Assembly: GCA_008632985.1 (NCBI GenBank)
Contig: QPGO01000001.1
Coordinates: forward strand, 302,600-366,599
Reading direction: 5' to 3'
DNA from: Psammoneis japonica
Taxonomy: Eukaryota
Length of the DNA: 64,000 bases
Part shown: positions 3,300-52,988 of the stretch, in pieces
How the letters are laid out: each line of letters begins with the position of its first letter
Numbering within the stretch: position 1 is the first letter of the stretch
Made by a program: the position numbers and the translations under genes
The notes under the pieces: generated by a model
What the model was told of the DNA's origin: nothing
Databases searched by the model: none
Seen by the model: only the letters and a program-made list of their open reading frames with translations

Positions 3300-4831
3300 A
3301 TGGCAGAGCATCATGATGGGCATATTCGCCGTCGTGTGTTTTATTCGATCAAGCAGATTTGGTACTTTGTGTTTATGAGTTTTTTTTTGAAAGATTCTTG
3401 TCTGTTTGGCAGGAGCATTACCAATTCGCAGCAGAGACGACTCCTATACACGCAGTAGTGAACAAGAGTAGCAATTCATCGTTTGAAGATGATAACAAGA
3501 ACAAAAATGAGTCACACACAGTATTGAAGAATAGTCGCAATACATCTTTTGAAGATGATATCAAGAACAACAACACTTCTTTAAACAAAGAACAATCACG
3601 TTGGCTACAATTCCGACAAGAGTATCGGCGGCGACATGATCGCCACGCACCAGACACGTTGAGGCAATGGCTAGCGTTTGCTATTGAGAATAATTGCGAA
3701 ACAACAAGGTTTTATGATTCCATCAATCATCACCTTGAATTCTATCGCAATTCGTCCTTGTCACTCGACGACATTGTTCCAGGTGCCTCCAAGTATACAA
3801 ATTTTTTCGTTGCCTTTTCTCTGGAAAACAACACTTTGACTGTGGAGCAATACAAAGTTCCAGGAAGGCGGTTTGAAGCAAAATTCAATGAATCCATAAC
3901 GCGTTTACGATTCCTACTGCGTCCATTGGTGGAACACAAGCCACCCATTCGAACCAAATTTGTCATGGATCTCGATGACAAGGGAAAAGAAAACAACATT
4001 GGCGAGTTTCCCCTATTTTCTTGCAATCATGTATTCGCGCATCCCAATCAAGATTCGACCTTTGAAAAGCCAATGAATTGGACACAAGCATTACTTCCAA
4101 GCGGTAATGCCCGTGATCTACTAGTTCCCTATAAATGGAGTATTGCTCCCGAACACAAACCCGCACGACAGCGACGGTCTCGAGGACGCGCATGGAAAAA
4201 GCGAGACGACGTTATTGTTTGGAGAGGCTCAACTACGGGACAGTGGTTTAGTGGACCACGATTCAAGCTTCTCGAACAATTTGGCGGGACGAGTGTCCAT
4301 CCAATTGCTCCTAATGTTTCCGTGGACGTTGATTTTGCGTTTGTGACTCCGCTCGTACACAGTGACGGAAGAGACTTGGATGCCAGTAAATATCGAGTCG
4401 CAGATAAAATTACCTATGGTGATATGCAAAAGCACAAGTACATTATGGATGTGGATGGTCATGGTAGGTTGTTGGATTGTTCCGTTATATTAATTAGGGA
4501 TTGGCAATAATCTCACTCTCTTCTTCTTCTTCCCGCCACAGCCTTCTCAGGACGATTCCCAAGTCTCTTGGACTCAGGATCCCTCGTGTTTAAATCAACC
4601 AGGTATCAAGAGTGGTTTACCGAACGTGTCGTCCCCTGGGTGGATTACGTTCCAGTCAAATACGATCTGAGCGATCTGGTCGAAAAAGTCGAGTGGGCCC
4701 ATTCTCATCCAGAGCTTGCTGCTCGTATTGCAAGACATGCTCGATCGACCGCCGAGAATAATCTTCGACGAGAGGATCAGCAATGCCATACATACAGACT
4801 TCTCTTAGAATATCATGATTTGTTTGATTGA
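3300..4831 (+). CDS. Glycosyltransferase family 90 (CAP10/KDELC-like), paralogue A
   Basis: WRGSTTG, KYIMDVDG..FSGR, YVPVKYDLSDL motifs; intron 4464-4540 (GT..AG) restores DGHAFSGRF; frameshift in poly-T near 3380-3388. Confidence 0.85.
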
Positions 4832-7137
4832 TTCAACAATGTAAGAACGTGGTGGAAATACAGCGCACAAGTGATGCACTTGACCGTCATAAAAGAAGCT
4901 GCAGTCAGACATAACCAGAGAATGAGTAGGCATCATACCTCAGTGTTTGTCATACTTTTAGATAACGCATAACTTAATGTGATGGTAAAACCAAGAATCG
5001 GCATGAATCTGCGCGCTGTTCTGACCTCCGGGATCTATGTGAGCATGCGGCAATCCTTGTCCTTTTGATTGGTGCAGCCGATGCCTTTGTCTGGAAATCG
5101 TTTTGTGCAGACGACATTTTTTGTGGAAGTTCTTGGCCTCGTGCTGGTGTTCCTTGCAGATTTCGCATGCGGATTTGCAGTCGTGGTGCTTAACGGGATT
5201 ATTTTCTCTTTCCAGCTTCCATGCTGCTTCAAAAAATCACCCTCTTCTGCAACACATGCAGCTCTCTCTGCGGTGGCAGTCTTGGCTTGGGAATGGCCGC
5301 AATCCTTCTCTGGGCTTAGTTGGAAAACAGACAACTTGTCAATGGAGCTGCAGCATGAATTGAAGGCATCTTGTGCAGTGTCATGCACCAGCTGATGCTG
5401 CGGGGGTGACCACACCAACCAGGTTTTGAGTGTGCTGGTGAGCATGATCTTCCAACTCTCTCATTTTGGGTGAGTCCTTGCCATCTAGAAACTCAGCATG
5501 AGTGCCCAAATGTGATGCCTCTGAATGGCCTTGAGTTCCTGGAACCATTCTTCCAATGTGTGGTGTTTTTGGTGCAGGTCACAACCACGTGAGCTTTGTG
5601 TGTCCCTCCTTGAGCAAGTGTTCCCCTCCTCACAGAGGAGGTCATCATCTGGGTGTGCAACTGCCATCAACACAGAATGCTTTTTGATGCCCTTGGCAGT
5701 CAGGAGTGCGTTTTGCCTTTGATTTTGTCATTCATCTTTTTTGCTTTTGTTGTCATGAATGATGGCCTTAAATTTGATGCAATCTGTGCAGAGACAAGAG
5801 CAAAGCCTCACTTTCAACTCATTTGCCACCACTTGTTTCTTTTTAGAGATCATCATGTTGCTTTTCATCTCATTCACCTTGTCACCCCCAGTGTTGTTCA
5901 TGGCCAAACAGTTGACACTGTTCACTGCAAAGCTGAGAGCACCGCTTGCTGACCACATTTTTCTTGAATCTTGTCAGCTCCAGTGCAACCTGCACTGAGT
6001 GCTGTGGGTGGTGGCTTGCTTGCCACATGGCCCCATCATCACAGTGAGCAAACATGTGGTTGCTTTTGAGTGAGGGAAAAAAGCAGCCAATCATGCGTGT
6101 GGCACAGAGGAACTTGATGGACAGACTTCTTGGGCCAGTTGTTTGCCTGGTCTGGAAGCTTTGGCAAATCTTCATGATTTGGGTGGCTGTTGATCATGGT
6201 GTGCTGGGAACAAGGCACGGCACCTCACAGAGAGTTGTGACAATGTGGTCTGTGTGGCAACTTTGTGCAAAATGATCTTGCTCACTTTGGCTCTCACTGT
6301 TTTTAGCTTGCTGCCATCTCCCATTTTCTTTCAGACCAACGGATTCCCAAAATGTTTTGTTCATGTGCCAAGAGTCACCTCACATTGGCTTTGGGATTTC
6401 TCACTTGCATGGTGCAAATGTCTCTGCCAACAACTCCAAAAATGCTCCAGCCACTCCACAGAACAAAACTTGGAAAATGCAAGAAACTGATGCTTTGGGA
6501 ACCTTGGCTTCACTGTTGCTGCCAGCAATCCCCTTCTTGGAGACTTCATTGGTGAAAAGGAAGTTTTCAACTGCTGGACAGCCAAGAAATCCAAGGCTCC
6601 TGCACCTTGACCATCCGGGAATGGAGGCCGTGGAGAGATGTTGCTTCTTGCTTGAGGCTGGTGGGAAAAACAACAGAGCTCTGTCGCTGACATTAAAGCC
6701 GCTGATGTTGGCAGATGCCCCATCACACCAACCATCCAAGAAGGCACCAAAACAGGTCCTGTTGAGTCCCAAAAGGAGAAAAAGTGGAAGCATCTCAAGC
6801 CATGCCTTCAGCAGCATTGTCATCATTTCATGCCAGCAGCAGTGTTTTTGCATGATGGAGGACCAGCTGGCAAAGAAGAGGCCCAAGCATCCCCAAGGCT
6901 GATTGCAGCATGACTTTTCTGCAAACTGCAAAAACCTCATTTGGGAGCGCCGCGCACAAGCTCGTCAATGCAAGGATGGAAGCTGCAGCTGTGAGGACAG
7001 CTCACCTTGGCCTCAGAGGCCCCCACTGTCTCTCTGTCAGCATCAACCCAAGATGTGATGACTGATTGCACATGTGGGGATGCATTGCTGTCACCTGGTG
7101 GCAAGGTGCCATCTGCACACCAAGTGTTCAATCATGT

Positions 7138-7414
7138 CAACAGGATTTGAACAGGATTTAGGTGCGCGCGACATGTCGCGCGCTGTCCAGTTTGCCGCGC
7201 ACAGTTTTGTGTGCTTCAGTTCCGCGCGTTCGCGCACGGTGCAGTTTGCTTTCGAGCCACAAGGCTCACAAGAACAATGACAGTAGCCCGATTGTGCCGA
7301 CTTTGCACGTCTTTCGGCTCCTGCAACTGTCTCTGAGCGGAGACTCATCTGCCATTTAGACAGCAGCAAGGAGTTGTTGTTTGAATTCTTGCCATTTGCC
7401 TTCAATTTCTGTCA
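7138..7414 (+). repeat. 5' LTR (about 277 bp)
   Basis: 7138-7321 aligns with 13956-14124; ends CTGTCA, the inverted repeat of the 3' LTR start TGACAG. Confidence 0.8.
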
Positions 7415-7432
7415 GATTAACAGTCTTGCTCA
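7415..7432 (+). promoter_or_regulatory. Putative primer-binding site
   Basis: GATTAACAGTCTTGCTCA abuts the inferred LTR end; reverse complement contains CTGTTAA, a tRNA-Asn(GUU) anticodon loop. Confidence 0.45.
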
Positions 7433-8336
7433 TTGTCAACCCATTGAGCAACCGCCATCGTCGTCGTTGATTTACCGACGATGACACTTCAATTCTGCAT
7501 GGATCTCCGCATGTGTTCTATGCACATCGGCAAGTCTGCGCGCATTCAATGCCAGGCATCGGCAGGAAGTTAACGTCACCGTCAAATCTCCTCACCGCTG
7601 GACATCTGGATTGATTGTGCTGCCTCTTGTCGCTGAAGACATGCATTCAACGGTCACATCCAAGTCTGTCCTTGATCCTCATCCCTTGACATGCCCATTC
7701 AACGGTCAACGGTCAAGAACCCTGCACATTCAAGGATCTTCGTCGCTGAAGACACACACACATCCACATCTTCACGGCCAAGAACTTGCACCCACTCTTT
7801 GGACTGCGGCTTTGCTGCCACTCTACAAGCACACCGAGTCCATTGCACCTGATCCACCCCAGACTGCTGGTGCTCTGCAGTTCCACTGGGTCCACGAGGA
7901 CGACTGTGAGAGCAAGCAGCCGTGATTGCAGCCTACGTTGGGGCGAGGGTGTTTTTTCCCGCGTTTGTTCGTTCGTCCACAGCGCCTGACGCCTGCATCA
8001 ACTGGCCAGCCTGATCGGGAAATCCAACCGACATAAAACAAGAACGGTTTGGGGGTCTTGTCCACCTCCAGTCAGCTCACCTGCAGGGGTTTGCAACCCG
8101 CTGCTGCGCTCGCAAGCAACCCAAAGCGCCACTGGCTGCGGGTTCAGACCTGCCGGCACAACTCTGCGGACCGGATGGGAAGTTTAGCACTTGACAACAA
8201 ACGGGACAGCACAGCCCGGCAACTTCTGATTTTAAGGCAGTTCAAGATTTCAAGTCAAGTCCATTCTCACCCAAGTTTCAAGTCTGCCTTCGCGTCCCAA
8301 CAAGAGTCGCTTGTCCTGACACCACTTTTGTCTGCC

Positions 8337-11300
8337 ATGGTTCTCACTCGTCAGCAACAAACCGATGGTTTCGAGCACGTTGTTGGAACCGTGCTTGCCC
8401 AAGGTGCTGGGAGCCCTCTTCGTTTGGCTTTGACCCATGACGGCACGGACTTGCATCAAGAACTGTTCACGTTCACACCGTCCCAAATCGACTCGCTTGA
8501 GTGCGACAACGGCACTGATGTGATCCCTTTGCCCCACGGTTGTAAGAACATGTTAGCAGCTCTAGTTGGTCTGCACATTGTCAAAGCACATGAAGGTCTT
8601 GACGTTGCCAATGACTCCTCGTTGTTCACGCATGAGGAGTTCCTTGCCCGCCGCCTCAGCCCCGACTGCATGTCTTCTGTGTCCGTCGGCAGCTTGCCCC
8701 TCGCACCTCTGCATGTCACCAACCCGACCAAGGCACGCGACCCGGTGTTGGACTTCAAGCAAGGCATCAAGCGTGACCCCACCACTTTCACGGCTCTCAA
8801 ATCCGACAAGCAGTGGCACACTTGGCACACCTCACTTGTGGCACAAGCCCGTGCCCAAGACGTCAAGTGCATTCTAGACTCGTCGTACAAACCGACCAGC
8901 CCCGAAGACAAACTGCTCTTTGCTGAACAGCAAAAGCACAAGTTCGCTGTCTTTGAATGCATCCTTCTCACCGACAAGGGCAAGGCTCTCATTCGCGAAA
9001 ATGTGGGGTCTTCTGACGCCCAGACCGTCTGCCGCGCCTTGTCCGAGCATGCGCTCGCCTCCACCCGCGCTTCCATCGAGTCCTCCACCTTGCTCATGCA
9101 CCTTGCCACCGCACGTCTTGGTGATGGCACTTAAAAAGGTCCGACCCACGGGTTCATCCTTCATTGGCAAGATCAGCTGCGCAAGCATGGGGCACTCATC
9201 CCGGCCAGTGACCACTTCTCTGAAGGGCAGAAGCGTGTCATGCTCGAGAATGCCGCACATCCTGTCGAGGAACTCCGTGCCGTCAAGAACCAAGCTGATC
9301 AGCATCGCACGCAGAGTGGCAAGAGCCTCACATGCGATCAACATTGTGGCTTGCTCCTCTCCGCGGCGGCTCAATGCGACAGCATGTTTCAACCCAAGAC
9401 GACACCTCGAGCTCCCCGACGTGCCACACACGCACACGACGTCTGCTCCGAGGAACCATCCGATGATGTGTTCCATGACATCGACAGCGACATTGACGTC
9501 CTTCAGGCCAACGCTGCCTGCACCCGTGGTCCCAGCCTCACCGGTGACCAGTGGAAACGTCTCCCTCCCGACCACCAACAGATTTGGGATTCGTTGCCCC
9601 ATTCCTCCAAGGCAATCATCCTTGAGCATTCTCGTCCGCCTCCCCGCCACCCGCGAGCCAGCAACTGCCATGAGTCCGTTGCGGTCAACCTTCATGACCA
9701 ACGACTTGGGAGTGACGGTGATGTCAACTTGTCCAACACGACTCCTGCTGACTCTGGTGACCCTGCTCCAAATGTGGATGCCACTTCAGATGATCCCATT
9801 CTGGCACACCTCACCAAGCGCAAGCCACCACCACCCGGTGATCTGCAACGCCTGTTGTCTCCTAACCAACCCCCCAATGCTGGTCGACCGGGCCCATCCG
9901 CCGCTCCCTCTACCTCGCCTGCTCCTGCAGATGACACAGAACTTGGCGGCCGCACTCACCGCCGCGTTGACAACCACAATGTCATTTGCTCTGCCTCCGC
10001 TCATCGCTCCACACGCACTGGTGCTCTGGTCAATCGTGGAGCCAATGGCGGCATTGCTGGCGACGACGTTCACGTCATTGCATGCACCTCTTGCCAAGTC
10101 GACGTTCAGGGCATTGACGACCATCAATTGGTGGACATCCCCATTGTCGCCACTGGTGCCGTCATTGAGACACAGCGTGGTCCCATCATCGCCATCCTCC
10201 ATCAGTGCGCATGCACGGGAAAGGGCAAGACCATTCATTCCTGCGGCCAGCTCGAATGGCACAAACATGATGTCAACGATCGCTCTGTCAAGGTGCCCAA
10301 CGGCTTGCAACGTGTCGCCACCCCTGATGGCTGTGTCATCCCAATTGACATCAAGGGCGGCCTGCCTCATGTTGCCATGCGTCCCTGCACTGACGCCGAA
10401 TGGGACACCCTGCCCCATGTCATCCTTGCCAGTGATGACACATGGGATCCTTCCATCCTTGATCACTCTGTCACTGATGATGACCAGCGGTGCGACGCGA
10501 TCTCTGACCTGCAGGACGATCCCACTGCCAACCCATTTGATGAATGCGGCAACTGCCGTCACCGTGTCGTTGTCAACAAGGCCATCATGTCCGCCTCCTT
10601 GTCTGCCGATCACGCATCCATCCTCGATGACCACCTCATTCCGCATGACGACGTGTTCTGCGAGTGTCATCTGCATGCGATTGACCCCAAGGACGACGAC
10701 GTTCCGCCCCCGGAGTGCACTGTGCAGCCCAAGGACCCCCCCTGCGAGTCTCTTCGGCCTTGCTTTGGTTTCCAACCTGCCGATGCGGTTCGTCGTACTT
10801 TCGACTGCACCGCGCAGTGCGCCCGCATGCCCGCTGGTGCACACCTTCAGAAGGCCTGCAAATCGCCCAACCCCGCCCTCAATGTGCACCGCCGCAACGA
10901 GCCCATCGCCACTGACACCATTTGTGCCGACACCCCGGCCATCGACTCTGGTTGCACCAGCGCCCAACTGTTTGTTGGCACCGAGTCTACTGTCACTGAC
11001 GTCTGCGGCACCAAAACGGACAAAGAGTTTGTCAACACACTCGAGGATCAGATCCGTGAGCGTGGTGCTCCATCCAAACTCATCAGCGACCATGCTCAAG
11101 TTGAGATCAGCAACAAGGTGCTTGGGATCCTACGAGCCCTCTTCATCTCCCCAGCTGGCAAAGTGAGCCTCACCAGCAACACCAAAACTTTGCCGAACAT
11201 CGATGCCAGACCGTGAAGTGCGTGGCGAACACTGTCATGGATCGTTTTGGTTCGCCTGCCCACACATGGCTGCTGGCACTCATGCACATGTGCTTCATGC

Positions 11301-14059
11301 TCAACCATGCAGCGTCCCCACGTCTCCACTGGCGCACGCCCCTCGAGACTCTCACTGGCTCCACCCCGGACATCAGCCCATTGCTTCGCTTTCACTGGTG
11401 GGAACCCGTGCACTTCCACCTTGATGACTCCGATTGGCCGTCCGAATCCCGTGAGTTGCGTGGACGCTTTGTTGGCATTGCTGAGCACGTCGGCCACCAG
11501 ATGACCTTCAAGATTCTCTCTGACGAGACTCAGAAGATCCTCTGCCGGTCCAACGTACGATCCGCTGCCACCGATCCTGCAGTTCGAAACCTGCGTCTTG
11601 ATCCTCCTGATGGGGAGCCACCTGAACCCATCATCAAATCTCACCATGACGACAACCCCGTCGATTCACCCGATGGGGAGATCAGGACACCCAAGATGCC
11701 AGTTTTCGATCCGCAAGACATCATCGGATGCACCTTCCTCATGCAGCCACAAGAGGACGGACAACGCCACAGAGCTCGCATCGTCAAGGCCATTGAAGAC
11801 CACAAATGGAAAGTGAGCAGCAATCCCGAGCTCACCAAGTTCGTCTGCTCTGTCAACAACGACGAATGCGAGGAAGTCCTGGCCTGCAACGACATCATGA
11901 ATCACATTGAACAAGAAGACGAAGACACTGCTGTTTGGAAATTTCGACGCATTGTGTCACACGAAGGACCTCTGAAGCCTCATGACCCAACCTGGAAAGG
12001 CTCAAGCTGCGACATTGTGCTTGAATGGGAAAGTGGGGAGATCACGTCCGAGCCTCTTGCCATCATCGCCAAGGACGACCCTGTCACCTGCGCCATCCAT
12101 GCACGAGAGAACGGACTTCTTGACACTGATGGCTGGAAGCGGTTCTGCACCATCGCGAGGCGCCAGAAGAAGCCATTCCGCATGGCCAACCAAGCCAAGC
12201 TTTGCTCCTTCCGCACTGCACCTTGCTGCAAGTGCGGATGCGAAGTTCCCCGGAACTGCAAACATGCCATGTCACTAGACGAACGCAACGGCAACCGCAA
12301 ATGGGGAGACGCAACTAATCTCGAGATGGACCAACTCAAGGAATGCGAAGTCTTCCATGACTGCGGGCCCTCCGAGTCTTCCACTCCTCCTGCGGGACAC
12401 AAGAAGATCCAAGTGCACCCAGCGTACGACGTGAAACACGATGGTTGCCACAAGGCACGACTTGCAGCCGATGGGCACCTCACGGACGTACCCATTGACA
12501 GTGTCTGCTCCGGAGCAGTCTCCCTCCGTGGCCTTCGGCTGATGATTTTCCTGGCCGAACTCAACGAGTTGGAGACATGGGCCACCGACATTGGCAATGC
12601 CTGCCTTGAAGCCACCACCAAGGAGAAGCTCTACATTGCAGCCGGACCCGAATTTGGCAAACTCGAAGGCCACATCCTTGTCATCCACAAGGCCCTGTGT
12701 GGACTGCGCAGCTCCGGCCTCCGCTGGCACGAGCGCTTCGCCGACTGCCTGCGAGCTGAAGGTTTCTTCCCCTGCCGCGCCGAACCCGACATTTGGATGC
12801 GCAGGAACGGCGACCACTACGAATGCATTGCCGTTTGTGTGGATGACCTTGCCATTGCCATGAAGGACCCTCAATCTTTCGTCGACACTCTCACGGAAAA
12901 GCACAAGTTCAAGCTCAAGGGTGTGGGACCGATTGAGTTCCATCTGGGCTGCGACTTTTCCCGGGATCCTGACGGCACCTTGTGCCTGTCTCCGTGCAAG
13001 TACATTGAATGCATGGTCGACAGCCACACACGACTTTTTGGGGAGAAACCCACCACCAACGCCCTGTCACCTCTGGAGAAGGGTGACCACCCCGAACTGG
13101 ACACTTCCGAACTGCTGGGGCCCAATGGCATTCAACAGTTCCAGTCTCTTGTTGGTTCACTCCAATGGGCAGTGTCCCTTGGTCGACTTGACATCACTGC
13201 GGCCGTCATGTCACTCTCTAGCTTCCGAGCTGCACCCCGTCAAGGCCACTTGGATCGTGCCAAACGCGTCTGTGGGTGCCTCTCCAAGATGCGACACGGC
13301 ACTCTCCGCGTTCGCACGGAAGAGCCCGACTGTTCGGATCTCCCTGCTCCGGCCTGTGAATGGATGCATTCCATGTGTGGCGAAGCAGAAGAGATGATCC
13401 CGAAGGACGCTCCACCGCCCCTTGGCAAGTTCGTCACTGCCACCCACTGCGTCGATGCAAACTTGTGCCATTGCATGCTCACCGGACGCTCTGTCATGGG
13501 AATGCTCCACTTCCTCAACAAATTCCTGGCTGATTGGCTCTCTAAGAAGCAAGCCACCATGGAGACTGTGACCTGCGGGTCTGAATTTGTTGCCGCAAGG
13601 ACTTGTGTCGAGCAGATTGTCGACCTGCACATCACCCTGCGCTGCCTCGGCGTCCCGATCCGTGACATTGGTTGCATGTTCGGTGACAACAAGTCAGTTG
13701 TAGACAGTGCCACCATCCCGCACTCCAAGTTACACAAGCGACACACCGCACTGTTGTTCCACCGTGTGCGCGAGGCTGTTGCCTCTGGTTGCCTTGAGCT
13801 CCACTTCATCGAAGGCTCCCGCAACCCTGCTGACATTCTCAGCAAGCATTGGGGTTGCTCCCAAGTCTGGGACCTTCTCCGCCCCCTCATGTTCTGGAAC
13901 TTCATTCCATCTAAAGTCGAGTCTGTTTCTGTGACTCCTCAAGCAAACTGGGGAGTGACAGGATTTGAGCAGGATTCAGGTGCGCGCTGTTTAGTTCACC
14001 GCGCACAGTTTTGTGTGCTTTGGTTCTGTGCGTTCGCGCGCGATGTAGTTTGCTTTTGA
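8337..14059 (+). pseudogene. Copia gag-pol polyprotein pseudogene
   Basis: ATG 8337; stop 9132-9134 within DGT*KG; protease LVNRGANG (D->N); integrase TDT...SDHA; frameshift near 11150; RT KARL..DG, DIGNACL, KALCGL, CVDD (12836-12847); RNase H DNKS, NPADILSK. Confidence 0.95.
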
Positions 14060-14124
14060 GCCACAAGGCTCACAAGAATGACAACAGTGGCCCGATTGTG
14101 CCGACTTGCACGTCTTTCGGCTCC
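13956..14124 (+). repeat. 3' LTR, truncated
   Basis: Starts TGACAG after the PPT; similarity to the 5' LTR stops at CGGCTCC (14124). Confidence 0.85.
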
Positions 14125-14708
14125 GGCTTTGCGGCACATGCATGACTTCTTGAAACTCTGCTGCCAGCACTCATGTTGAGCAGTTCATTTTGCCAGAGAC
14201 ACAGGCAAAAAACAACAAGATGCCAACAAGGCATTCCTCACATCTTCAACTCTTCGTCTCAGCGTGCCTCTTGTCTTCCAGTGTTAGCTACAGCACTTCA
14301 GGTTATGACGCCGATTCTTGGACTTGGACGACAGGACGGGAAAAGTTTCGATTTTGCGAAAAAATTGCGGTTGCGATGTGACGGCTTTCAAAAAAAATAT
14401 ACATTAAACCCATGCGTAAATCTTATAATGTACGGCAACGCCTAGCTCTAACACTATCACTCATACAGTTAACAAAGTCGTGCAGGAATCACATGTATGA
14501 GGAAGTTCATATACTCTCTAGATTTATATAAGCATGGATTACGGAAGACTAACGCCGCAAACGCCAATTCGAAATTTTGAAAGAATCAAGCGAGCAAAGC
14601 AAGCCATCACTTTTCACCTGCTCGTTTCACCTTTTATTAGAGTACCGCACAGTTGGTGGACATCAAATTGACGTACGGGCCTCTGTTAAATGGTGGAAAA
14701 ACGGCATT

Positions 14709-16494
14709 ATGCTCATTGCAGGGCGAGTTACGACATCTTCGGTGAAGAAGGTTTTCTACTTTGCTTGCACGAGTTGCTTCATGATAAGGTTCTTCACGAT
14801 GTGGACCGAGCAGTATCAAATAATAAGTCTAACGCAGATCCCTCAAAGGAAGCACAAGCACGTCAAGAATAGTTCATTTGCTAATATCTCGTTACCAGAC
14901 GAAACCTACGAGACAGAAGCAGAGGATGGCCCTCAAAGGAAGCACAAGCAAGTCAAGAATAGTTCATTTGCGAAGATCTCGTTACCAGACGAAACCCACG
15001 AGGCAGAAGCAGAGGATGGCCCTCAAAGGAAGCACAAGCAAGTCAAGAATAGTTCATTTACGAAGATCTCGTTACCAGACGAAACCCACGAGGCAGAAGC
15101 AGAGGATGGCCCTCAAAGGAAGCACAAGCAAGTCAAGAATAGTTCATTTGCGAAGATCTCGTTACCAGACGAAACCCACGAGACAGAAGCAGAGGATGGC
15201 TTTTCATCAACCAAGAATAAGAACAACGAGACGTCTAGAGAACAGGAACGCTGGGATGCCTTTAAGAAAGACTATTGGAAGCGAAATCACAGACAACCCC
15301 CAGACTCGTTGAGGCAGTGGTTGGCGTTTGCTGTAGAGAAGAAATGTGCAACAAGAAGGTTTTATGATTCCATCAATCACCACCTGCAGTTCTTTCGCAA
15401 TTCTTCCTTGTCACTCGAGGATATTGTTCCTGGAGCCTCCAACTACACAAACTTTTTCGTTGCTTTTTCTCTCAAGAATAACAAGCTGAATGTCGAAAAC
15501 TATCAAGTTCCAAAAAAGCTATTTGAAGAGAAATTCCCTAGATCTGTAGAGCGCTGGCGATTGTTGCTGCGTCCTTTGGTCAAGCACAAGCCACCTCTTC
15601 GAACCAAGTTTGTCGTGAACCTCGACGACAAAGGAAACACAAAGAAAGACAGCACGTTTCCGCTTCTTTCATGTAACCACTGGTTCAAGACTCCAAACCA
15701 GGATATTACGTTTGATAATCGACTGAATTGGAATGAAGCATTAATTCCAAGCCATAATGCCCGTGATCTTTTAGTTCCATATAAATGGAGTATTGTTCCC
15801 GAAGACAAACCTGCAGGACAACGACGGCCTCGAGGACCTGAATGGAAAAAGCGAGATGACGTTATTATTTGGAGAGGTTCAACAACAGGGGAATGGTTTA
15901 CTGGTCCACGGTTCAAGCTGCTTGAAATGTTCGGTGGGTCAGGTGTCCATCCTATTGCTCTCAATGCTTCTGTGGACGTCGATTTTGCGTTTGTCAGGCC
16001 GCTCGTTAACAGCAACGAGAACGACTTGGATACGAATAAATATCGAATCGCAGACAAAATTGTTTATGAAGACATTCAGAAGCACAAGTATGTTATGGAT
16101 GTGGATGGACATGGTGAGTTAGTGAACATGGCTCATCCATGATGGTTGTGCTTCCGGCATTGGCAAAATTCTTCGTTCTTACGTACCTGCTATAATTACA
16201 GCTTTCTCAGGACGCTTCCCAAGTCTCTTGGCTTCAGGATCGCTTGTTTTTAAATCAACCAGGTATCAAGAGTGGTTTTCCGAACGTGTCATTCCCTGGG
16301 TGGATTACATTCCTGTCAAGTACGATCTAAGCGATCTTGTCGAGAAGGTCGAGTGGGCTCATTCTCATCCGAACATAGCTGCCCGCATTGCAAGACATGC
16401 TCGATCGACCGTCAAGAATCATCTTCGTCGAGAGGACCAGCAATGTTACACTTACAGGCTTCTTTTAGAGTACCATGATCTGTTTCATTACTAA
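14709..16494 (+). CDS. Glycosyltransferase family 90, paralogue B
   Basis: Colinear with paralogue A; same intron position (16114-16201); N-terminal signal anchor. Confidence 0.9.
14841..15200 (+). repeat. Coding tandem repeat, 4 x 90 bp
   Basis: CCTCAAAGGAAGCAC at 14841, 14931, 15021, 15111; unit PQRKHKQVKNSSFAKISLPDETHEAEAEDG. Confidence 0.97.
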
Positions 16495-16829: not shown

Positions 16830-19800
16830 AGCAATCCACAAGTCAGCAGTCATTGCAAGAGCCTCCTCTGCGCAGCGCGCTTGGCAAATGCTGTGTGGCT
16901 CATTTTCAAATGGCTGTTCTTTTGTGCAGTGGTGCCACTGCAATTCACTCTCAAACTGCTGACAATGCAGTTGCTGCTCATGTGCTTCTTTCAACTTCTG
17001 GACTGTTGACAACTCCAGATTGCAGATCTTGGTGCAGTTTGCCATGTGGTCTCCCTCGTCATCCATTTCATTGAGTTCTTTTCTGGACATTTCCGCTGTT
17101 TGTGCTGCGGTTGTCCTGCACAAATCTTCCCATTGGTTGAGTCATTCACTCACTGCATCTTGCTTGATCACTGTCCCACTGCCACACTGCGCTGCAGTCA
17201 GGAGGCAGACTGTGTGCCTGCTGACACTTTGAGAACCAAGAATCAAGCCCTCAACCTGTGGGGCACAATGTGGTCTTGTGGTGGCCAAGAAGATGATGGC
17301 AGAATGGGGCCATTGTGTGCTCTTCATTCATGAATTTTCTTGTTGCACCTCACAGCCAGCGCAGGCTGCCACCCCCTCTGATCCCCCTGACAGGGGGAAG
17401 CTGTGTGGGGTCTGTGCACACTTCCCGTGCAAAAAGATTGTGCACTTCACGTGTGCAGACAGGTTGTGCATGCTTCATGCTCGCTTGCAAAGCAATTTCA
17501 AAACTGGTTTGTTGCTTGACAAATGCAGTTGCTTTGTGGTTTGCTGACAAACTGCATTTTGTAAAACACTCAGTCAGAAAATGTTTGCAAAGAGCTGCAC
17601 ATGCTGCATTGGGTCACCTCACCACCAGCCATTCTGAGCATGCAACCCATCTCATTTCATTTTCATCTGCAGGGGTTGCAAGCACATCTTCTGCTGCACC
17701 TCTGGAAGTTCTGGAAGCAAGCCACCCATCAGCGTTGGTCCACAATTCTGGACAAAGTCTTTTCACAACATGCCTGTTTCCTCCAAAAACTGTTGGCATC
17801 AAATGTGGGTGTGGTGTGGTGCTCAGAAACACTTTTGTCTTTGACATGGTCTCTCACCTTGATGATGTCTCTGCCAGCAGCCTTTTTGTCATTGGCCACC
17901 CACTTGCCCAGATTGATCTGCCTCTGAACCTTTGCCCACCTGCACACACTGTGGGGCTGCTTTGTGGCATTGCAAGTTGCTTGGCCTCCCCTTTGTGTTG
18001 TCTTGTGATCTGAACACAGTGGTTTTTCCTTCATCATTGACTGAAATTTTTGACAAGCAAATTGGATTAAAAAACAACCCCAAGTTTTAAAAATGTTTTG
18101 GTTGTTGATGACCATGGTTGCACACAACAGAAATGCAAACATTTCTTTTTTCTGGCAGCCTTGAAAGCCCTCTGTTTGTCCTGTTGCAAACCACATGGTT
18201 TTGGAATTGCTGCCCTTCTTCACTCACTGAACAAACCAATTTTCAAATCAATCAGCACACTGCACAGCCAACAAATTGTCGCTGACTTGCATCATGATTT
18301 GTGCCTCAATTTTGTCTGCAATGCATGATGAAGAGTTGCCATTGCCATGGCTGGCACAACAGAATCCAGTGTGTTGATGCAACTCAAAATGAGCTGGGCA
18401 TGTTGTTGTCCCAATCCACTGATGCTTCTGCACCACCAATGGGCTGATGACTGATGCACATCATCAGCAACCAGTCAGTTGAGCACAGCAGCCACCTCCC
18501 AGGTGCTGCAGGTGCCAGCCACCCCCCTTCTGGCTCTGCTGCTTGCACCTCAGGTGACACCATCATTGCATCTGGCACCAGACTCCCCATGTTGGGTGGC
18601 AGCAGTGGCATCTCAGGTGCCTCTCCTGGTGGACCAAGCCTTGTGACATGTTGGGCAAGCCAAGTGCATTTGCTGACACTGACACACACAGAGGAAATGG
18701 GGGCCCAGGAAACCAACAAGACTGATGAAAATGACGGATCTCTCTCAAGAGAGGACAACAACAAAGGTTTTGTTTTGAAGTGTTTCTTGGGATCAACTCA
18801 TCCCAGCAGATGTTGGGTTCTGATGATGAAGAGGGTTTGGCAGCACCAGAGCTTTCTGCTCCAAAGGAGCGTGCCGCCACATCATCATCATTGGGCTGCA
18901 TGTTTGCATCTGGAGGGAAAAGCATCTCTTGAGCTGATCACAATCTGTGGCAAGTCCAGTGCTGCTCACAACACAAGGTGCAAAGAGACCAGTGACAAGC
19001 AAAGCAAGCAAACACACACCACATTTTTTCACTTTTTGAACTTTTCTTTCATGACTGGTCATCTTGTCTTTCCAGCATCTTCAAACTCATCAAACAGATG
19101 ACTGGCATCCTCATCATCTGCCAAAAGAGTTGTCATCTGCCAAAAGAGGGGGTCACCACAAGATGGCAATTTTTGTGCTTTCCCTGCACTGCACTGCAGT
19201 CCATCAGAAGAACTGGGCCTCTTCAGGATTGCTGGAAGTGGGGTCTGACACTTCTTCCTCTGTGATGCTGTTCTTGAACTGAGAAAGGGAGTTTTTGAGA
19301 CTTGCAAGAAAAGCACCCCACCCATCCACCATTGATCATGTGCCTCCATTCCTCACCTGTGGCTTGTCAGTGTGCAAAAGCTCCTCTTCATCGTTCCATT
19401 GGCAACACACCAGAAATGCCTTCAATGGGTTTGAAGCTTTGTCTTTTTCAGGCTGCAGACATGAAAGTGGGGTGATTTTGGACACATCTTTGTGACAGAA
19501 GCAAAATGCCACAAGGTGGCACGCAATCTCACCCTGTTGACATCAGACCTTGCCAATTTGAGGGGGTGAAATTCGTGCAGGAATTTTTTGCAGGGTGGAC
19601 AAAAAATTGCAGTGCAAGTCACTTCACGCAGATGACCAAGTGGGTTTGTGGCTGCCTCTCTCTCTGGGCATTGCTCTGACAACTGCTGAACATGTTAACA
19701 TCCAATGCAAAAATGCCAAACGCAAAAATGTCAAGTGAAATTTTTGAAACACCCCCAAATGGAAATGTCAGTGGCAAAAATCAAGTGCAGATCTTTTGTT

Positions 19801-22355
19801 CAGATGTGAGCAAAACAACAAAGGAGTGACAGTTGCTGCAGCTGCTGCACTTGTGTCAAGATCTGAAAGAAGACAAAATGATTTGGTCACATGGGACAAT
19901 GGTCGCATGCAGACCAAAGAAAAAAATGAGTGCCACAAATGAAAAGGGGCACTCATGAGAGGTCAAAGTGCCAAACAACAACCTGTGGCTGATGCAGCCC
20001 CCTTTCTTGTGTCTCTGACATGCAGTGGTTCTCACCACCACATCCTCTGCATGAGCAAAAGCTCCAAGAATCTGCTGAGCATGTTGCAGCAGCAAGCAAC
20101 AACTTGAGCCAGCTTGCGCACTGAGCACATGGCATCTGCCATGATGAGAGAAACTTTCTGCACCCTCACCCCAGTGAAGTCAGGGCTTTCATGACACTGT
20201 CTCAGAGCACAAAATCAACCCCTCAAACCAGCTCATCATGAGAGTTGTCTCAGTGTCCATCATCTTTTCAATGCACCACTGCACAATGTGACTGCCACAA
20301 AGCAACAACAACAACAGGAGCACTTTGTGTTGTGCAAGTTCACAAAAGCTGTCTTCTGCACAGCTTTCTCTTGCTGCTTGCACCAAACAGTGCTCCAGCG
20401 GGTGTTCACATCTCTTGTTTTGCTTCATTTCTTCTTGCAGTGTGTCAACATGAGTTTTGAGGCTGGAGGCCTCTTTTGGTGCCAAGAACTGATTGAGCTT
20501 TGCCCTGAGACAGTTGTGAAATCCCCTTTGGCAAGTTGCAAACAAGACAATTGCCAAGTCCACCTGATGCTCTTTTCACAGACTTGCAGCCATGCATCAT
20601 TGATGACTGCACAAACATGCCACAGGGCCCAGGGAGGGTGTGTGCCCCACTGCCTGTTAGAGCAGCAACAGACAAGAAGAAGTCAGCAGCAGATGGTGCA
20701 TGAGCCTCCCTGCAAACTGGCAACATCGGTGGCTGCAGTGTGTGCTTGGAACTCCTCTGCATCAATCACCACAAGGGCAGCATTGACAACTCTCCTTTCT
20801 CAAAGGGGGCTTGGCTGGCACCAGATTTGAGGTGCAAAAAACAGTTGTTCCCAGAAAATGCAGGGAGAATGCCAGCGTTGTCCCGTCGTTGGAACATCAA
20901 GGCCAGAGGCAGTTTTTGCAGGACAGACAGACAAAGTTGCAGTGTGAGACATGCTGACAACTGTGGACAATGTGGCAACTTGTCTGCATTTGCAACTCAG
21001 ATTGAGTTGCAGGTCTTGTGCTTGCTTTTTAGATTTTGCATCTGGTGCACATGGCAACAACAGCCAGCGGCAACAGTTGTGTGTTTGCAAGCCAATTGGT
21101 GAGTTTGGAGATGCAGTGAGACTAAATGGGTGCTGGTCAGCAAGCTGCAAAGCTCCAACCCAGAAGCCAAAAAGTCACAGCACAATGCCCAAAGGAGTGG
21201 CATCATTCAAGGGTTGGGAAGTTGAGAGAAATCCACAGAGAAGAGCTGGGAAGTCAAGAGGAATCTGCAGATGAGGGCTGGAAAGTTGATGGGAATCCAA
21301 AGGAAAAAGGCCAGGATGTCAACAGGAATCCAAAGGTGCACATTGTGTTGGTGAATTGCAGCAAATGAGCCAAACAACATCTCTAGAGGGCTGTGAAGGG
21401 TCTGCTGAAACAGGGTGTGACAAGGTTGTGTGTGTCAGGATCAGCGAGACAGAGTGTGTGGCTGTTGACAAGCCATGGAACTCCGGTGCAAGTCCCAGAA
21501 AAGATGGGCAAGGACACAGCTGAGTGCAGAGAAGCACAAATGAATCAAAACAGTGGGTGCACAATTCCATTGCCTGGCTGGGATGACATGCAGATGGGCA
21601 CATGGAAACCATGAGGAAGATCATTGGCAAGCATGTGTCAGAAGAACAATGTTTGGGCTGGAGATGCAGGCACCAGTGTCTCTGAGGCAGGGTGAGAGAA
21701 TGCCAGGAGAGAGCCAGATCATCCCTTGTGGGAGGACACCATGTCAGAGAAGGACAAGGCAATCTGGGGCAAGAAATGTGATCACCATGTAAAACAGAGT
21801 GTGTGACTGCAACAAGATGCAGAAGGCAAAAGGCATTTGACACAATTGCGGGGCAATGCACAAAAGACCACTCATCACAAGCTTGAAACAGTGGGACATG
21901 GCAGCACTGCTGGATGCACTCAAGTTGATTTTGTTCAGTGCAACTGAGATGACAAACCCGTGTGTCCAGATGGTCAGGGCTTGGCAGCATCAGCTGGTGC
22001 TCATTCACCAAGACAAAGGAGAAGTGCTTCACAAAAGATTCTTGTGGTTGGCTCACAAGCATCCATGGTTGAAATGGTGGAAACATCCCATGGCAGGATC
22101 ATCCAGGAAGAAATTGCCAAGAAGAAGATGGGTTCAGCAAGGATGCTGATGATGCCTGGAGCAAAGAAAGGAGGAACAAGTCATTGGCAGCAACGCCAAG
22201 AATGGAAGGTGCCAAGGGCTGCTGTTGGCATGTCTTGAAAGACCTGCATTGGCGGTTCACATTGCGGGGGTTGACATTTGTCCCAATTCAGCTGAGGAGG
22301 CACTGCAGGTGTTGGACACCCACGGGACCAACAAGAAACCTGAGGGGGCATGAGT
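16830..22355. other. TpA- and CpG-depleted block B (degenerate, unidentifiable sequence)
   Basis: No TpA found by eye in 20041-20650; CpG rare; no credible ORF. Confidence 0.85.
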
Positions 22356-32519: not shown

Positions 32520-32990
32520 GGTTGCATGACGTGTAGCTTGCGTTTCATGGCAGAACAGATCACGTTGGAGGATAAAGCACATGCACCACAGTTTGCTTTT
32601 TGCCAACAGGCATTTGATGGCGAAGAGAAGCGTCAAAAAAGAATGCAAGGATAGCATTAATGAACAAAATCTAAAGCAGTGTACATTAAGTTCCACGCAA
32701 AGATGGTCCCTGCTGTTGCACGCAGTGCACATCTCGTGACGCCTTTTTGTCATTGGTTTCTAGCCACAGGCGAAGGGCTCCATGGCAATCTTGACTTTTG
32801 GCTTTGAGCAATGGCATCAGGAACATCATCTGGTGGGCTCTGAATGTTGGTTCTGCCAAAGTGATTGACACTCTCAAGAACAACAATCAATTCATTTGGT
32901 TTCCTCCATTGGCTGTTGCTCAAGGCACACACATCTTCCCTGATTTGGCTTCATGACCCAAGCCTCTCTCTGGCAATGGATGCCCCAGTC
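32520..32990 (-). pseudogene. Decayed copy of the hydrolase-like region at about 38490-38950
   Basis: ELIVVLESVNHFGRTNIQSPPDDVPDA vs ELILLDGVNHFGITSIQNPPGAIPDA; DNA similarity extends into the 3' flank. Confidence 0.8.
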
Positions 32991-33759
32991 ATGCAGGTGC
33001 CTCTTGCTGGCAGGCATCTTGCTCACAGGTCAGCAGGATGATCTCTGGATCAAAAGCACTGGACGTGCAAATTGCTGCAAGAACTTGAGGGCAGTGCAGT
33101 GCACTGGCTGAGCTGCAGCCAAAGTGAGAGCTGCCATGCTCTCTGGCATGCCACTGGCACTGCACTCAATCCTGCAAACATGAGGGCAGCACAGGGTGAG
33201 AGCTGGGAGAGATCTGTTGTCAGTTTGCACCATCCCTGCAGCAGGAAATTGTTGTGCCACACATGCTTCTTTGGTTGGCACACCATCCAACAAAAACTCT
33301 GTGTTGTCTTCTTTCCCCACAGAACAGCGCTGTGACATCAAAGGGCCAGGAAAGGGCATTCTGCCCCATGTGCAAGAGAAGTGCAAAGAAAAGCATTTGT
33401 TGCACATGCAGTTCTGCACAGTGTGACCCACCTGCACACCACCATTTTTTTTTCGCAGCACAAACAGATGCACCACACCCTGCACTGTTGCCAAAACCCC
33501 ATTGGCAATTCCTGCAATGATGCAACTCAGCCAACACATGGCTCTTGCACCACACAGCTTTGATGCAGAGCAGCACAACTTCATCGGCACTTGCCAGAAA
33601 ATCACATTGCAAAAAGCAGAGCAGGGCACAACATTGCTGCACCCACCACCAAAAAAAGCAGGTGTGTCATTCTCTTTGCCAATGGCATTGTGGACCAACA
33701 TTGGAGATGCATGCCTTGGCCTGCTGTGGCAGCAGCGGAGCACAGAAGAAGACAGCAAA

Positions 33760-34035
33760 ATGACAACCACATGGGAGCAGCTCTGGTCAATTCAGAGCAG
33801 CCTGCAGATTCCTTTGGCAATCTTGTCAATCATTCTTGGATTGGCAATGACCACTGCAGTTGTTCTTCAAGAACAGAGGAAAAGCCAGAAGCAAACACTC
33901 ATGTGCCATGCTGGGTCTTGCATTTTGGTTGTCTGAGTCAGCTCCTTGGGGCATGGCACTTGGGCTTGGGGAGCTGCCTTTCATGTGGAATGATTTGGAC
34001 ACATGTGCACAGCTCAGGACTTTCTCTTTGTCTTG
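33760..34035 (+). pseudogene. Decayed 5' fragment of the GPCR-like gene at 36744
   Basis: MTTTWEQL..LQIPLAILSII vs MPPTLEQL..LQIPSAILSIV; DNA alignable with an internal deletion. Confidence 0.85.
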
Positions 34036-36743
34036 TTTGAAAGAACAAAAAAGAAAAGCACTGGCCATGTGTCCACCACCAAAAGCCAGCTCTGTTCTCC
34101 ATGCCAATGTGGCCCTCCTCATTTTCACTCCCACTGGCCATCCACACTCTTGCACTTGAGCCTCAGTTGGCTGGTGCACTCCATGAAAGACATGATGCCA
34201 TGCTGTGCCACATGTTTGTTGTGAAGAACTTGAAAAAATCACACCACATGGAACAAATGTGGCAGAGCTTAAAAACTCACCATGCTGCAACATTCTGGAA
34301 ATGATGTTGATTGCTTGGGGAGCACAGCAGCTGGTCAACTGTTGCACCACCACCATGCAAAGCTTGAACAAACCACACCATGTTGCATGAAAAAGATGTG
34401 GCACGGTCTGTGTGCCACATTGCAGCACAACACAGCCAGGGTGAGAAAAGGACTGCAGAACTCTGAAAACAATGGGTCAATTGTTGTCACTGCACACAGC
34501 TGGCCAGGAGTTGCACTGCCACATGTCACAGCCAAAGACTTGCATTTTTCAGGTCAAGAAAACAAGACAGCATGATGACAGTGAGTTGACTGGGCTTGAT
34601 GTGGGGGGTCAAAAAATCATGCAAGTGCAGCAAAGCTCAAAGTGGACAGCAACCAGAGTTCACAGCAGATGTTGAAACACTGCCAGCAGGAGACACAGCA
34701 GAGCTCATTTCACAACATGGCAGTTGGGCAGAAGAGAAATCACACAGCACATGGGGGGGGGGGCAGTGCTCTGACTCCATCTTGATCAATGGTCAGCACA
34801 GGAAGCCACCAAAGAGCTCCAACATGCATCCACTCTACAAAGAGGTCTTGCATTTTTTCAAACTCTGGTGGAGTGGCAGATGCAGTTGGTGAGCTTGAAA
34901 CAGCACCAATTTTTTGCCAATGACAGCAACTGTGTTGGCAACAACAGATTGACTTGGCTGCCGGCGCCTCTTGCCTTGTTGTTTGATGTTGACCTTCTTC
35001 CTCAAGAATCTTTTGTGACTGCCTTGCATGTTTCTCCAAATGTTTCTTCAGCTGTTGCTGAAACAGGGGGCCTCTCTGTTTGACTCTCTTAGACCACACA
35101 CTTTGATCTTCAAGATTGTAGAACAAGGTGATGGGTCAGTCATCCAGGAAGATGTTGCTGCCATGTTGGGAAGATGCTTGCAAGAACAGAGGGAGGGCCC
35201 TCGTCTTGCCAAGCCAAAGCTTGTGGAATTTTGCTGATTGCTTGTTTTGCTCTTTGCCTCATGGAGTCTGTGAATGGGCACTTCCTCTTGGGGTGCACTT
35301 GTGCGCCCCCCTGCCTGCATCAGCCAGACTTTGAGTTTTCCAGCAAAGCAGGTGCGGATTTTCAGCATCATCATCACATCTCCAACACCTTGTCACAACC
35401 CAGTTGGGACATGGTGAATGCCATTTTTTACAATCTCCATGATTTTGGAGCATTTGCAGGGGTGTGCACTTGGTTGCTGCCTCTCAGGAGTCTGCAGAAG
35501 GCTGGAGACAGATTTTTAGTCACACACACAGATTTTTGCGCTTTTGAAACAAAGTGCAGAAGAGTTTCACAAGTGTGGTTGCTGGTCAAGACATGCAGAT
35601 GCTCCACTTGATGCCAAGCACAGAGGTGACTGGGTGACCCTGATCTGCTTTTTCATTTGAAAAGAGCGGGGGGTGCTGCTGCGAGACAGCAGCCACGACA
35701 ACAAAGCTTCACACTGGCAGGAGACAACAAAAGGAGGAGGCTTGGCATTCTGTGAGTCATTGCATGGCTGAAGCTGAGCTGATGGCAATTTACACTGGTC
35801 AAGATGAGCACCCCACTTGGGGTTGAGCTCATCTTCTTAACTTGTCAGAAGCTCGTCTTTCTTGCTGGGCCTCGACACCCCCCATGACGACTGTGTGCCA
35901 ACACCCAAGTCCAGCTCATGAAGGAGGCCAAGAAGTTTACACAGCAAAGTGTTCACACTTTTGCAAGTTATTTTGGCCAGGTGCCACTGGGTGCTGCACT
36001 TTTGTGGTGTGCAACCTGCTGCCAGTGTTGCGGGGTGGGGTGCAGTGCAGCGATGTGTGGTGCTGCAGACAGTGGCTGGTCATTTTTGCTCTCTCTGTGT
36101 TCATGGGCTTCACAATGCCCAGTTTTCAGAGCACCAAAAATGTTCTAAAGATGACAAATGATGACCCAAACCCACCACGTGTGGGCAAACTCCCGTTCAA
36201 ACCGGTGGGGGGCAACTCGAAAAGTTTTGCTCTAGCTGGCTGGAGGCAAACTGTTCGTTCGTGCGTTCAACAACAATGAGACAGTCTGTGCGCGCGCCCA
36301 CAGCAGCGAGCTGCTGCAGTTTTGCGCTGATACGTTGCCAGCGGTACAGTTTCTACGCAATGCCGGTTCCATTAAAGGATGTTGAAGTTATCATACAACT
36401 TCTCCGGCGATTGACGGAACTTTTCAAACCTTGCTGACACGCACGCACAACAACGGACACCACAATAAATACTGTGGCCTACCGTATGTAGGACCATACC
36501 GTAGCGCGACACTGTCGATCTCACAATTCTGCACAGTACGATGTGGTCGTGAAAGTTTGGGGAAATAACAACTCCAGTTCTGGTCGAAATAAGCATCGGA
36601 TGGTTGACACCATCGCATTGTGCTTCCATATTGTTGGATCACAAACTATCTACTTGGTTCTCGAACCGGGAAAACGCCTTAGGGACGCATACCTTCAAAC
36701 CTCCTGTGGTGGGTGAGCATTGAAAAATAATAAAGGCAACAGA

Positions 36744-38116: not shown

Positions 38117-38648
38117 TTGCCCGTTCGCACTGGCGCTTGGTACTGGCGATAGAGTGATTTTTGCTTGCATGTTGCATACTTGTACATAGTTTTGATGTTT
38201 TTTAGTCGACAGAGAGTGCTTTGTTTGGCGCCTCTACATTGCGCTGCATATTAGATTAGAGCGTAATCGCGTCTGGTGCCCAGACCTCATGAAACTCGAC
38301 AGGAGCTGCAGATGACACCCGAGACGGGATCGAGAAAATGCATTCATTTACATGCCGCGACGACAGATTCGAGAAGCCGATCTTCAACGCGAGGTTGTAC
38401 GCGATAGTATGTCCTAAACGTTGGTGCAAGCGAGAAACATTGCGCCTACCGGTATCGAGCTTCGGCATAGTACCCTCGCTGGGACTTGGAAGGTTGAATG
38501 CGTGCAGTATGAGTTTCATGGCAGAATATTTGTTGAAGGAAGAAGAATGTGCCATCGTCTTACGGAATGAAAATTGGGCCCATTGCCCAAATAGGCATTG
38601 AAGGACAAAAAAGCGCCAGAGAAAGATTCAATGGAACTAATGATCGAG

Positions 38649-52765: not shown

Positions 52766-52988
52766 CGAGTAGATAGACTGTACAGTAAAAAACACAGCAC
52801 ACCAAACCATTTCGAAACCGCGCCACACACTCAATCAGCAGGGGAGCCCGCTACCGGTATGCGGCAGCGGCGGCAGGCGGCAGCGCAATTGAGATAGTGG
52901 ATGAAAACAGCAAAAAACAAAAACAGCGAACACATCATCGCGCCGTTGCTGCTGCTGTTTCTACTTTTGAGATTGCTTTCTACTTACA

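Follow-up and report, generated by a model that had tools for sequence, protein, structure and literature searches.

Described systems of directed mutation and the present locus

In fungi, repeat-induced point mutation (RIP) changes C to T at CpA, creating TpA, and mutates both copies of a duplication. Editing of retroelements by ADAR or APOBEC enzymes reportedly leaves clusters of deaminase-type transitions that have been interpreted as a defence; these enzymes target RNA, or intermediates of reverse transcription, ahead of integration and affect a single strand, and APOBEC gives C to T. To our knowledge, no targeted hypermutation of DNA from A:T to G:C had been described before a 2026 preprint on the chlorarachniophyte Bigelowiella natans. 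Here, we analyse a comparable signature in a 64,000-nucleotide (nt) stretch of contig QPGO01000001.1 (positions 302,600 to 366,599; the window in what follows) from a probable diatom, in which an element classed as a Ty1/copia long terminal repeat (LTR) retrotransposon, at 7138-14127, has lost nearly all its TpA dinucleotides and, with them, nearly all the Tyr codons of its gag-pol.

Mutation-accumulation lines of B. natans revealed a rate about 1,000 times that of the remaining genome in two viral integrations (Mettrop et al., bioRxiv 10.64898/2026.01.13.699255). These regions consist of nucleocytoplasmic large DNA virus (NCLDV) and virophage DNA, 230 of the 231 mutations were A>G or T>C, and all GC-biased mutations in these regions lay at TpA, which became TpG or CpA depending on the strand. 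The genome, with a callable part of 85 Mb (90%), contains 124 clusters poor in TpA and rich in CpA and TpG; reverse-transcriptase and DDE domains are over-represented in its TpA-poor coding sequences, and an ADAT2-like DNA adenine deaminase was proposed by the authors (bioRxiv 10.64898/2026.01.13.699255). An earlier note on the present DNA, made from the sequence alone, knew of no described system of this type, a statement that no longer holds in view of the TpA-only A:T to G:C hypermutation of B. natans.

The two cases share their main features. In both of them A>G and T>C changes are nearly exclusive, apart from CpG decay in ours, they are restricted to TpA with TpG and CpA as products, and they stay within certain foreign or silent regions, next to which the DNA is normal. 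In contrast to B. natans, the host here is a probable diatom and thus a stramenopile, and the targets are an LTR retrotransposon and dead paralogues of host genes. Depletion is also near saturation in the window, with observed/expected ratios (O/E) of TpA of 0.01-0.10 compared to 0.45 in the NCLDV region of B. natans, and the signature, to be set against the 124 clusters of that genome, spans 39% of the window. The co-located CpG decay and the 3'-pyrimidine preference described below find no mention in the available preprint text, in which the words "diatom", "CpG" and "trinucleotide" do not occur. On the other hand, the B. natans rate was measured in live lines, whereas the process reported here is read from sequence alone. 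Searches of the literature returned no report of TpA hypermutation in diatoms. The diatom CoDi elements (Maumus et al. 2009, PMC2806351) are of the same Ty1/copia type as our element, which we call CoDi-like without placement in a subgroup, and the terms "hypermut", "dinucleotide", "deamination" and "RIP" are absent from the searched passages of that paper.

Comparison with the longer-known systems gives both likenesses and differences. As in fungal RIP, transitions in a specific context have hypermutated repeated DNA in place, wrecking it and leaving a dinucleotide signature, but TpA has been lost here and not gained. As in the decay of silenced transposons by deamination of 5-methylcytosine (methyl-CpG decay), CpG has become TpG or CpA in the same blocks; however, the removal of TpA is beyond the reach of that process, which is about ten times slower per site in this DNA. 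Unlike ADAR and APOBEC editing, the changes follow integration, affect both strands and extend to DNA that is no retroelement.

Loss of TpA from the copia element

The element lies on the forward strand between two direct LTRs, a 5' LTR at 7138-7324 (about 187 nt, including an insertion of 14 nt that the other copy lacks) and a 3' LTR at 13956-14127. Five full-length polyproteins from public data (P0001, P0008, P0080, P0121 and P0128; 1,695-1,913 aa) match the degenerate gag-pol at 8337-13924 collinearly in tblastn, and a reverse transcriptase domain (RVT_2, Pfam PF07727) was detected at 12389-13021, corresponding to residues 429-639 of the frame 11105-14059, with E = 7.4e-21 and 75.3 bits against a cut-off of 31.6; its YVDD motif reads CVDD. 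Judged from these two kinds of match, the element belongs to the Ty1/copia class. No gag, protease or integrase (rve) domain was found by Pfam at E <= 0.01 in the frames upstream of RVT_2. The best relatives are proteins from marine and freshwater metagenomes (53-65% identity), and the best named one is from Nitzschia inconspicua (54% identity in BLASTP, 53% in an alignment of 29 homologues). When the five polyproteins were searched with tblastn against the window, no further copia copy was found, and a scan of viral contigs likewise found no relative of the element.

Tyr is nearly absent from the coding frames, with one residue in 8337-9134 (266 codons), none in 9135-11216 (694 codons) and four in 11105-14059 (985 codons). 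This amounts to 5 of 1,945 codons, whereas a Tyr content of 4%, as in the homologues, would give about 78. Thirty columns carry Tyr in at least 70% of the 29 homologues, and at these the element has 2 Tyr, 20 Cys, 5 His, 2 Phe and 1 Trp, whereas the conserved columns of His, Trp, Gln and Met are retained at 100% and those of the remaining residues at 64-98%. The composition of the pol protein shows the same shift (Tyr 0.41%, Cys 4.98%, His 5.08%) when set beside the medians of 269 fetched relatives (Tyr 4.0%, Cys 1.16%).

The near-absence of Tyr had been reported in the earlier note, and our counts agree with it, with slight differences in the lengths of the open reading frames (ORFs). All seven motifs that it quoted are present (CVDD, KALCGL, NACL, TCGSEF, HWGC, HQCAC and GHKKI), as are the one in-frame stop (TAA, 9132-9134) and the one frameshift (near 11147-11156) that it had counted. 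While this damage count was right, the use made of it, namely that an almost intact frame speaks against neutral ageing, is a weak argument, because conversion of TpA to TpG or CpA creates no stop codons and destroys TAA and TAG. This same erasure of TAA and TAG explains the spurious long ORFs over gag-pol, one of 762 aa in another frame at 8878-11166 (forward strand) and one of 447 aa at 9786-11129 (reverse strand), and the ORFs of 90-259 aa with which the depleted blocks described below are all filled. Annotators should be aware that regions of this kind carry long false ORFs in several frames.

At the nucleotide level, 26 TpA are left in 8337-14059 (O/E 0.10) and 38 in the whole element, where 183 would be expected at an O/E of 0.55 (Poisson P = 1e-38), a baseline that is the rounded value for undepleted 1-kb windows, which range from 0.40 to 0.75. 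The related metagenomic loci all have a TpA O/E of at least 0.49 (80 of 80; median 0.72), and from these 80 relatives 139 TpA would be expected in pol, where 12 are seen. The O/E of CpG in the element is 0.82 and that of ApA is 1.06, and in depleted DNA CpA and TpG rise to 1.4-1.9. A tetranucleotide mass balance against the same 80 relatives was considered as an estimate of the ratio of the two outcomes, but was dropped, being confounded by the C-rich composition of the element (43.7% C at third codon positions of pol, 11156-13900); in pol it gave a shortage of 127 TpA sites against an increase of only 77 in TpG plus CpA and of 46 in CpG.

The spectrum of changes was read at conserved columns, counting the single base changes that convert a codon for the consensus residue into the codon of the element. 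This gave 25 A>G changes at TpA (plus one ambiguous), 8 T>C changes at TpA and 7 changes of either type elsewhere, so that TpA is the site of 33-34 of the 40-41 A>G or T>C changes; only 2 A>G changes were found at ApA. The C>T or G>A changes were all at CpG (14 of 14). The same columns hold 20 transversions and 25 multi-step changes, most of which reflect the 35-47% divergence from the relatives and not decay. Outside Tyr codons there are eight or nine TpA events, such as GTA to GCA, CTA to CCA or, over a codon border, T-ATY to T-GTY (Y, pyrimidine). Thus, the process works at the level of the dinucleotide and not of the codon, and only two processes are visible, TpA to TpG or CpA and CpG to TpG or CpA. 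The proposal in the earlier note of a near-saturating, context-specific A:T to G:C mutation at TpA on both strands is borne out by these counts, including the enrichment of A>G at TpA.

Loss of TpA depends on the neighbouring bases. Among the TpA that survive in the depleted blocks, YTAR (R, purine) makes up 48 of 86 compared to 207 of 1,378 in host DNA (P = 7e-17), whereas RTAY is found in 7 of 86 compared to 439 of 1,378 (P = 4e-7). When a loss term set by the 3' neighbour was fitted for each adenine, the loss relative to a neighbouring A was 2.70 for T, 0.98 for C and 0.00 for G. The preferred site is T-A-Y, with TAT above TAC and both far above TAR, which on the other strand reads R-T-A. 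The prevalence of Cys over His at former Tyr positions follows from this preference, because the adenine of a Tyr codon on the sense strand always has a 3' pyrimidine; Tyr columns with a pyrimidine before the codon gave 14 Cys and 2 His, and those with a purine gave 6 and 3. A measure of outcome bias, YTGY plus RCAR against YCAY plus RTGR, was rejected as too diluted by native TG and CA (ratio 1.1-1.6, compared to 1.24 in host DNA).

The time of action was deduced from the LTR pair. The two LTRs of an element arise from a single template and are hence identical at integration. Those of the present element are 87.5% identical in four letters but 99.3% identical in a purine/pyrimidine alphabet, with 22 mismatches in 172 aligned columns. 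The differences comprise five TG/CA swaps, four sites with TA in one LTR and TG or CA in the other, four with CG against TG or CA, three other transitions and one transversion. No TpA is intact in both LTRs, compared to 12 CpG. Counted by copy, 14 of 18 are mutated at the nine identified TpA sites and 4 of 32 at the CpG sites, which gives a ratio of per-site rates of about 11, a lower bound, as sites resolved alike in both LTRs are invisible. A TG/CA swap is left when an ancestral TA or CG has been resolved independently in each LTR, and since only 4 of 32 CpG copies are mutated, double hits at CpG would be far rarer than five, so the swaps derive from TpA. The LTR of this copy must then have had at least nine TpA on landing. 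Thus, conversion of TpA acted on DNA in place after insertion, which agrees with the action on transposon DNA proposed in the earlier note, and its per-site rate exceeded that of methyl-CpG decay in the same domains by a factor of at least about ten.

Other copies of the element were found in the public reads of one study (four runs, X1-X4); none of the sequencing runs listed for this sequence was of RNA. Contigs of run X1 contain 49% of the sampled 31-mers of this copy at k-mer depths of about 60-170; similarity to the element reaches 90% or more in 11,368 contigs and 99% or more in 2,516. Transitions account for 366 of the 422 variable places in this run, TG/CA swaps among them. Within the 40 best-supported differences, 13 are places with TG or CA here and CG in other copies, ten rows represent five TG/CA swaps, six are other transitions and seven are transversions or complex changes; the remaining four are sites at which other copies still have TA where this one has TG or CA. 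None of the outcomes that the earlier note had named as refuting its reading was observed: this copy carried TpA on insertion, TA persists in some other copies, and A>G is enriched at TpA. At 8306, 13865 and 13921, this copy reads GAGTC or AAGTC and nearly all X1 copies read GAATC or AAATC, which are A/G differences outside TpA or CpG.

Proteins with erased Tyr were also found among the metagenomic relatives. At the Tyr columns, the copia fragment P0194 has 9 Cys, 6 His and 2 Phe, the P0238 cluster (four members) has 7 His, 3 Arg, 2 Cys and 1 Met, and P0156 and P0077 have lost Tyr in part. Such proteins are rare, with 2 of 269 relatives fully erased; of 118 short protein matches none was fully erased and two had less than 2% Tyr. 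Conserved Tyr columns read Arg in three cases in P0238, four in P0274 and eleven in P0077, compared to none of 30 in the present element; Arg at such a column means that TAY became CGY, with both bases of the TpA changed.

Depleted blocks and dead copies of host genes

The TpA-poor part of the window consists of six blocks. One of them (5187-13846) joins the copia element to an older stretch at 5187-7137, which abuts the 5' LTR, is depleted in both TpA and CpG and has no recognisable domain; in 1-kb windows, the O/E values are 0.11 for TpA and 0.31 for CpG at 5001-6000, and 0.03 and 0.18 at 6001-7000. The other five are likewise depleted in both dinucleotides, with CpG O/E of 0.10-0.39 and TG and CA of about 1.8-1.9. 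The block at 16855-22272 retains 9 TpA (O/E 0.02), with 0.11 for CpG, 1.85 for TG and 1.87 for CA, and that at 42986-45132, between two FG-GAP_2 host genes, retains 2 TpA (O/E 0.01; CpG 0.14). Those at 32786-35946 and 48382-52586 include copies of host genes, and that at 57872-59495 is partly related to 48752-49110. Fourteen ORFs of the non-copia depleted blocks gave no Pfam match at E <= 0.01. In the undepleted DNA that flanks the blocks, TpA O/E is 0.4-0.75, and the edges are sharp, normal TpA density being regained within about 100-250 nt. At the 3' edge of the copia element, for instance, TpA occurs within the element for the last time at 14046; beyond the end of the LTR at 14127, dense TpA resumes from 14285.

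The copies of host genes were identified by alignment in the purine/pyrimidine alphabet. The segment 32786-34034 is a copy of the host region 36732-39130, which carries a 7TM-receptor-like gene (seven-transmembrane), and the block (32786-35946) is a dead paralogue of that region, with 88-90% identity in such alignments. Similarly, 48638-49475, the 5' part of its block, is a copy of the FG-GAP_2 gene at 40024-42492. The undepleted host copy was taken as a proxy for the ancestor, and against it the depleted paralogue has kept 1 of 21 TpA, with 8 changed to TG and 7 to CA, and none of 45 CpG, with 21 changed to TG and 18 to CA. In control host paralogues aligned likewise, 78 of 203 TpA and 132 of 274 CpG were kept.

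These copies bear on what is attacked. In the tandem host families, one member per family is mutated and its neighbours are not, so that, unlike in fungal RIP, each depleted copy has an undepleted paralogue. The term "reverse RIP" used in the earlier note is therefore an analogy only, as only one of the tandem host paralogues is mutated and no sign of repeat induction was found; its restriction of the targeting to transposable elements was too narrow, as dead host-gene copies carry the same signature. Since two blocks are dead copies of neighbouring host genes, the target appears to be silenced DNA and not transposons alone, and we take a silenced, CpG-methylated chromatin domain, rather than sequence repetition as such, to be what is probably attacked.

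Other repeats were observed in the window. The region 32786-39130 appears to consist of three tandem units of about 2.99 kb, of which the first is hypermutated and the other two, including the 7TM-receptor-like ORF at 36717-37691, are not. A tandem array at 51340-52776, with a unit of about 488 nt (94% and 87% identical), lies inside the block 48382-52586. Two undepleted host-like segments, 3650-4830 and 15300-16490, are 79% identical (90% in purine/pyrimidine) and flank the old block and the copia element, an arrangement suggestive of two tandem genes that insertions have separated. Within the host ORF at 14553-16142, for which no Pfam family was found, 14840-15289 contains four tandem 90-nt units (96-97% identical, the last one 63%) encoding a repeated 30-residue peptide. 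Genes of the host in the neighbourhood of the element are long and have few introns, and FG-GAP_2 proteins are among their products; one of these genes gave a weak Atlas lead to Bacillariophyta (score 0.82). Together with the relative from N. inconspicua, this is why the host is called a probable diatom. The window also contains a galactosyltransferase-like ORF, a search with which gave two matches.

Possible mechanisms and significance

We consider it probable that a copia element of a probable diatom was inactivated after its insertion by conversion of TpA to TpG or CpA at the level of DNA, that is, by A:T to G:C change on either strand, in sharply bounded and presumably silenced and methylated domains. 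The mutator would be directed to silenced DNA, whether transposons, unclassified repeats or dead host-gene copies. Enzymatic deamination of adenine in DNA is our leading guess for the chemistry; adenine at T-A-Y would become hypoxanthine, to be read as G at the next replication. This may be a process of the kind observed live in B. natans, where integrated viral DNA is hypermutated at TpA, and it presumably serves genome defence.

Several points weigh against this reading or limit the data on which it is built. The fit of the context preference is approximate, as some surviving TpA may be new mutations. TadA acts in the context UAC, of which the 3'-T preference found here is no specific match. 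The pol region has 171 CpG where the relatives predict 125, despite the CpG decay of this copy relative to others, and the G+C content of the element is 0.566 compared to 0.474 in the relatives, 9 points higher, of which loss of TpA covers only about half; this excess of G+C and CpG reflects either the composition of the element's own family or additional, unexplained changes. Alignment in the purine/pyrimidine alphabet favours transitions by construction, although the control pair was aligned by the same method. The read check is indirect, as the four runs come from one study and one sample and may be the assembly data of the window itself, with no record of the platform; most of the 413 further read differences are outside its view, and it does not cover the state of the Tyr codons (TAY) in other copies.

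The absence of a platform record, for the assembly and for the four runs alike, is also what would favour a base-calling artefact, in which the repeats would still read TA and a modified base at this step would have been called wrongly. This is most improbable, since the contigs of run X1, at the depths given above, hold about half of the sampled 31-mers of this copy, and other copies have the same TG/CA swaps. Moreover, if bases on the two strands were miscalled, a mixture of TA and CG calls should result, but five blocks have lost CpG as well; the pattern in the old blocks is overlaid by later mutations, and Tyr-erased copia fragments occur in other public assemblies. Editing of RNA from A to I by an ADAR-like enzyme, fixed by reverse transcription, or descent from a master copy already poor in TA, would fit the excess of A>G over T>C on the coding strand (26 vs. 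8), and a 5' U preference is typical of ADARs (bioRxiv 10.64898/2026.01.13.699255). However, the coding-strand excess is accounted for by the TAY context of Tyr codons, both strands were hit, as the eight T>C changes on the sense strand attest, and the dead host-gene copies, which never passed through RNA, have the same pattern. The differences of the LTRs at nine TpA-derived sites, five swaps and four of TA against TG or CA, exclude pre-integration editing and a TA-poor master alike, and we regard this as the least credible of the explanations weighed.

Two alternatives place the cause in DNA. Error-prone repair synthesis of Pol-eta type, which changes WA to WG (W, A or T), might occur at methylated heterochromatin, for example after the T:G mismatches left by deamination of 5-methylcytosine. 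TpA is a WA motif, A to G is a Pol-eta error, and TpA and CpG have been lost from the same blocks. Nevertheless, it is very unlikely, because in the young copia element TpA has fallen to an O/E of 0.10 and CpG only to 0.82, in line with the rate ratio of about 11 in the LTRs; loss of TpA so far ahead of loss of CpG cannot be a by-product of the rarer CpG events. In addition, ApA, the other WA motif, is undepleted (O/E 1.06) and shows only two A>G changes. The cause could also lie in the thymine, if a JBP/TET-like enzyme oxidised it to 5-hydroxymethyluracil or 5-formyluracil at TpA in silenced DNA and the product mispaired with G, giving T to C at R-T-A. A>G on one strand is T>C on the other, inseparable by sequence, and TAY is RTA on the opposite strand; besides, 5-formyluracil gives T to C changes, and 5-hydroxymethyluracil of dinoflagellates is reported to be enriched at TpA. 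Against it, no such mutagenic defence is described in the literature found, and we consider this explanation unlikely, if less so than Pol-eta-type repair.

Returning to directed mutation of adenine, a wider proposal can be made tentatively, with less than even confidence: a TpA mutator of DNA that is guided by chromatin or silencing, most simply an adenine deaminase, might be a genome defence shared by protists of the SAR group (Rhizaria and stramenopiles), which here has brought a many-copy copia family and dead host genes to saturation, reading TAY and outpacing methyl-CpG decay at least tenfold. If true, there would be a natural editor of adenine in double-stranded genomic DNA and a mirror image of fungal RIP, of interest to the fields of genome defence, mutation rates and base editing. 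Elements without Tyr and with erased TpA, TG/CA swaps between LTRs and the TAY context offer a plentiful genomic read-out of the process that is easy to score and can be used for surveys, for dating and for narrowing down the enzyme. What is known from B. natans is extended here by a second host lineage far removed from it, by saturation, by a retrotransposon and dead genes as targets, by a rate relative to CpG decay, by a timing proved by LTRs and by a preference for the 3' neighbour. If a probable diatom has the same signature, at saturation and in retrotransposons and dead host genes, the process would be more than a peculiarity of a single alga and would reach beyond inserted viral DNA.

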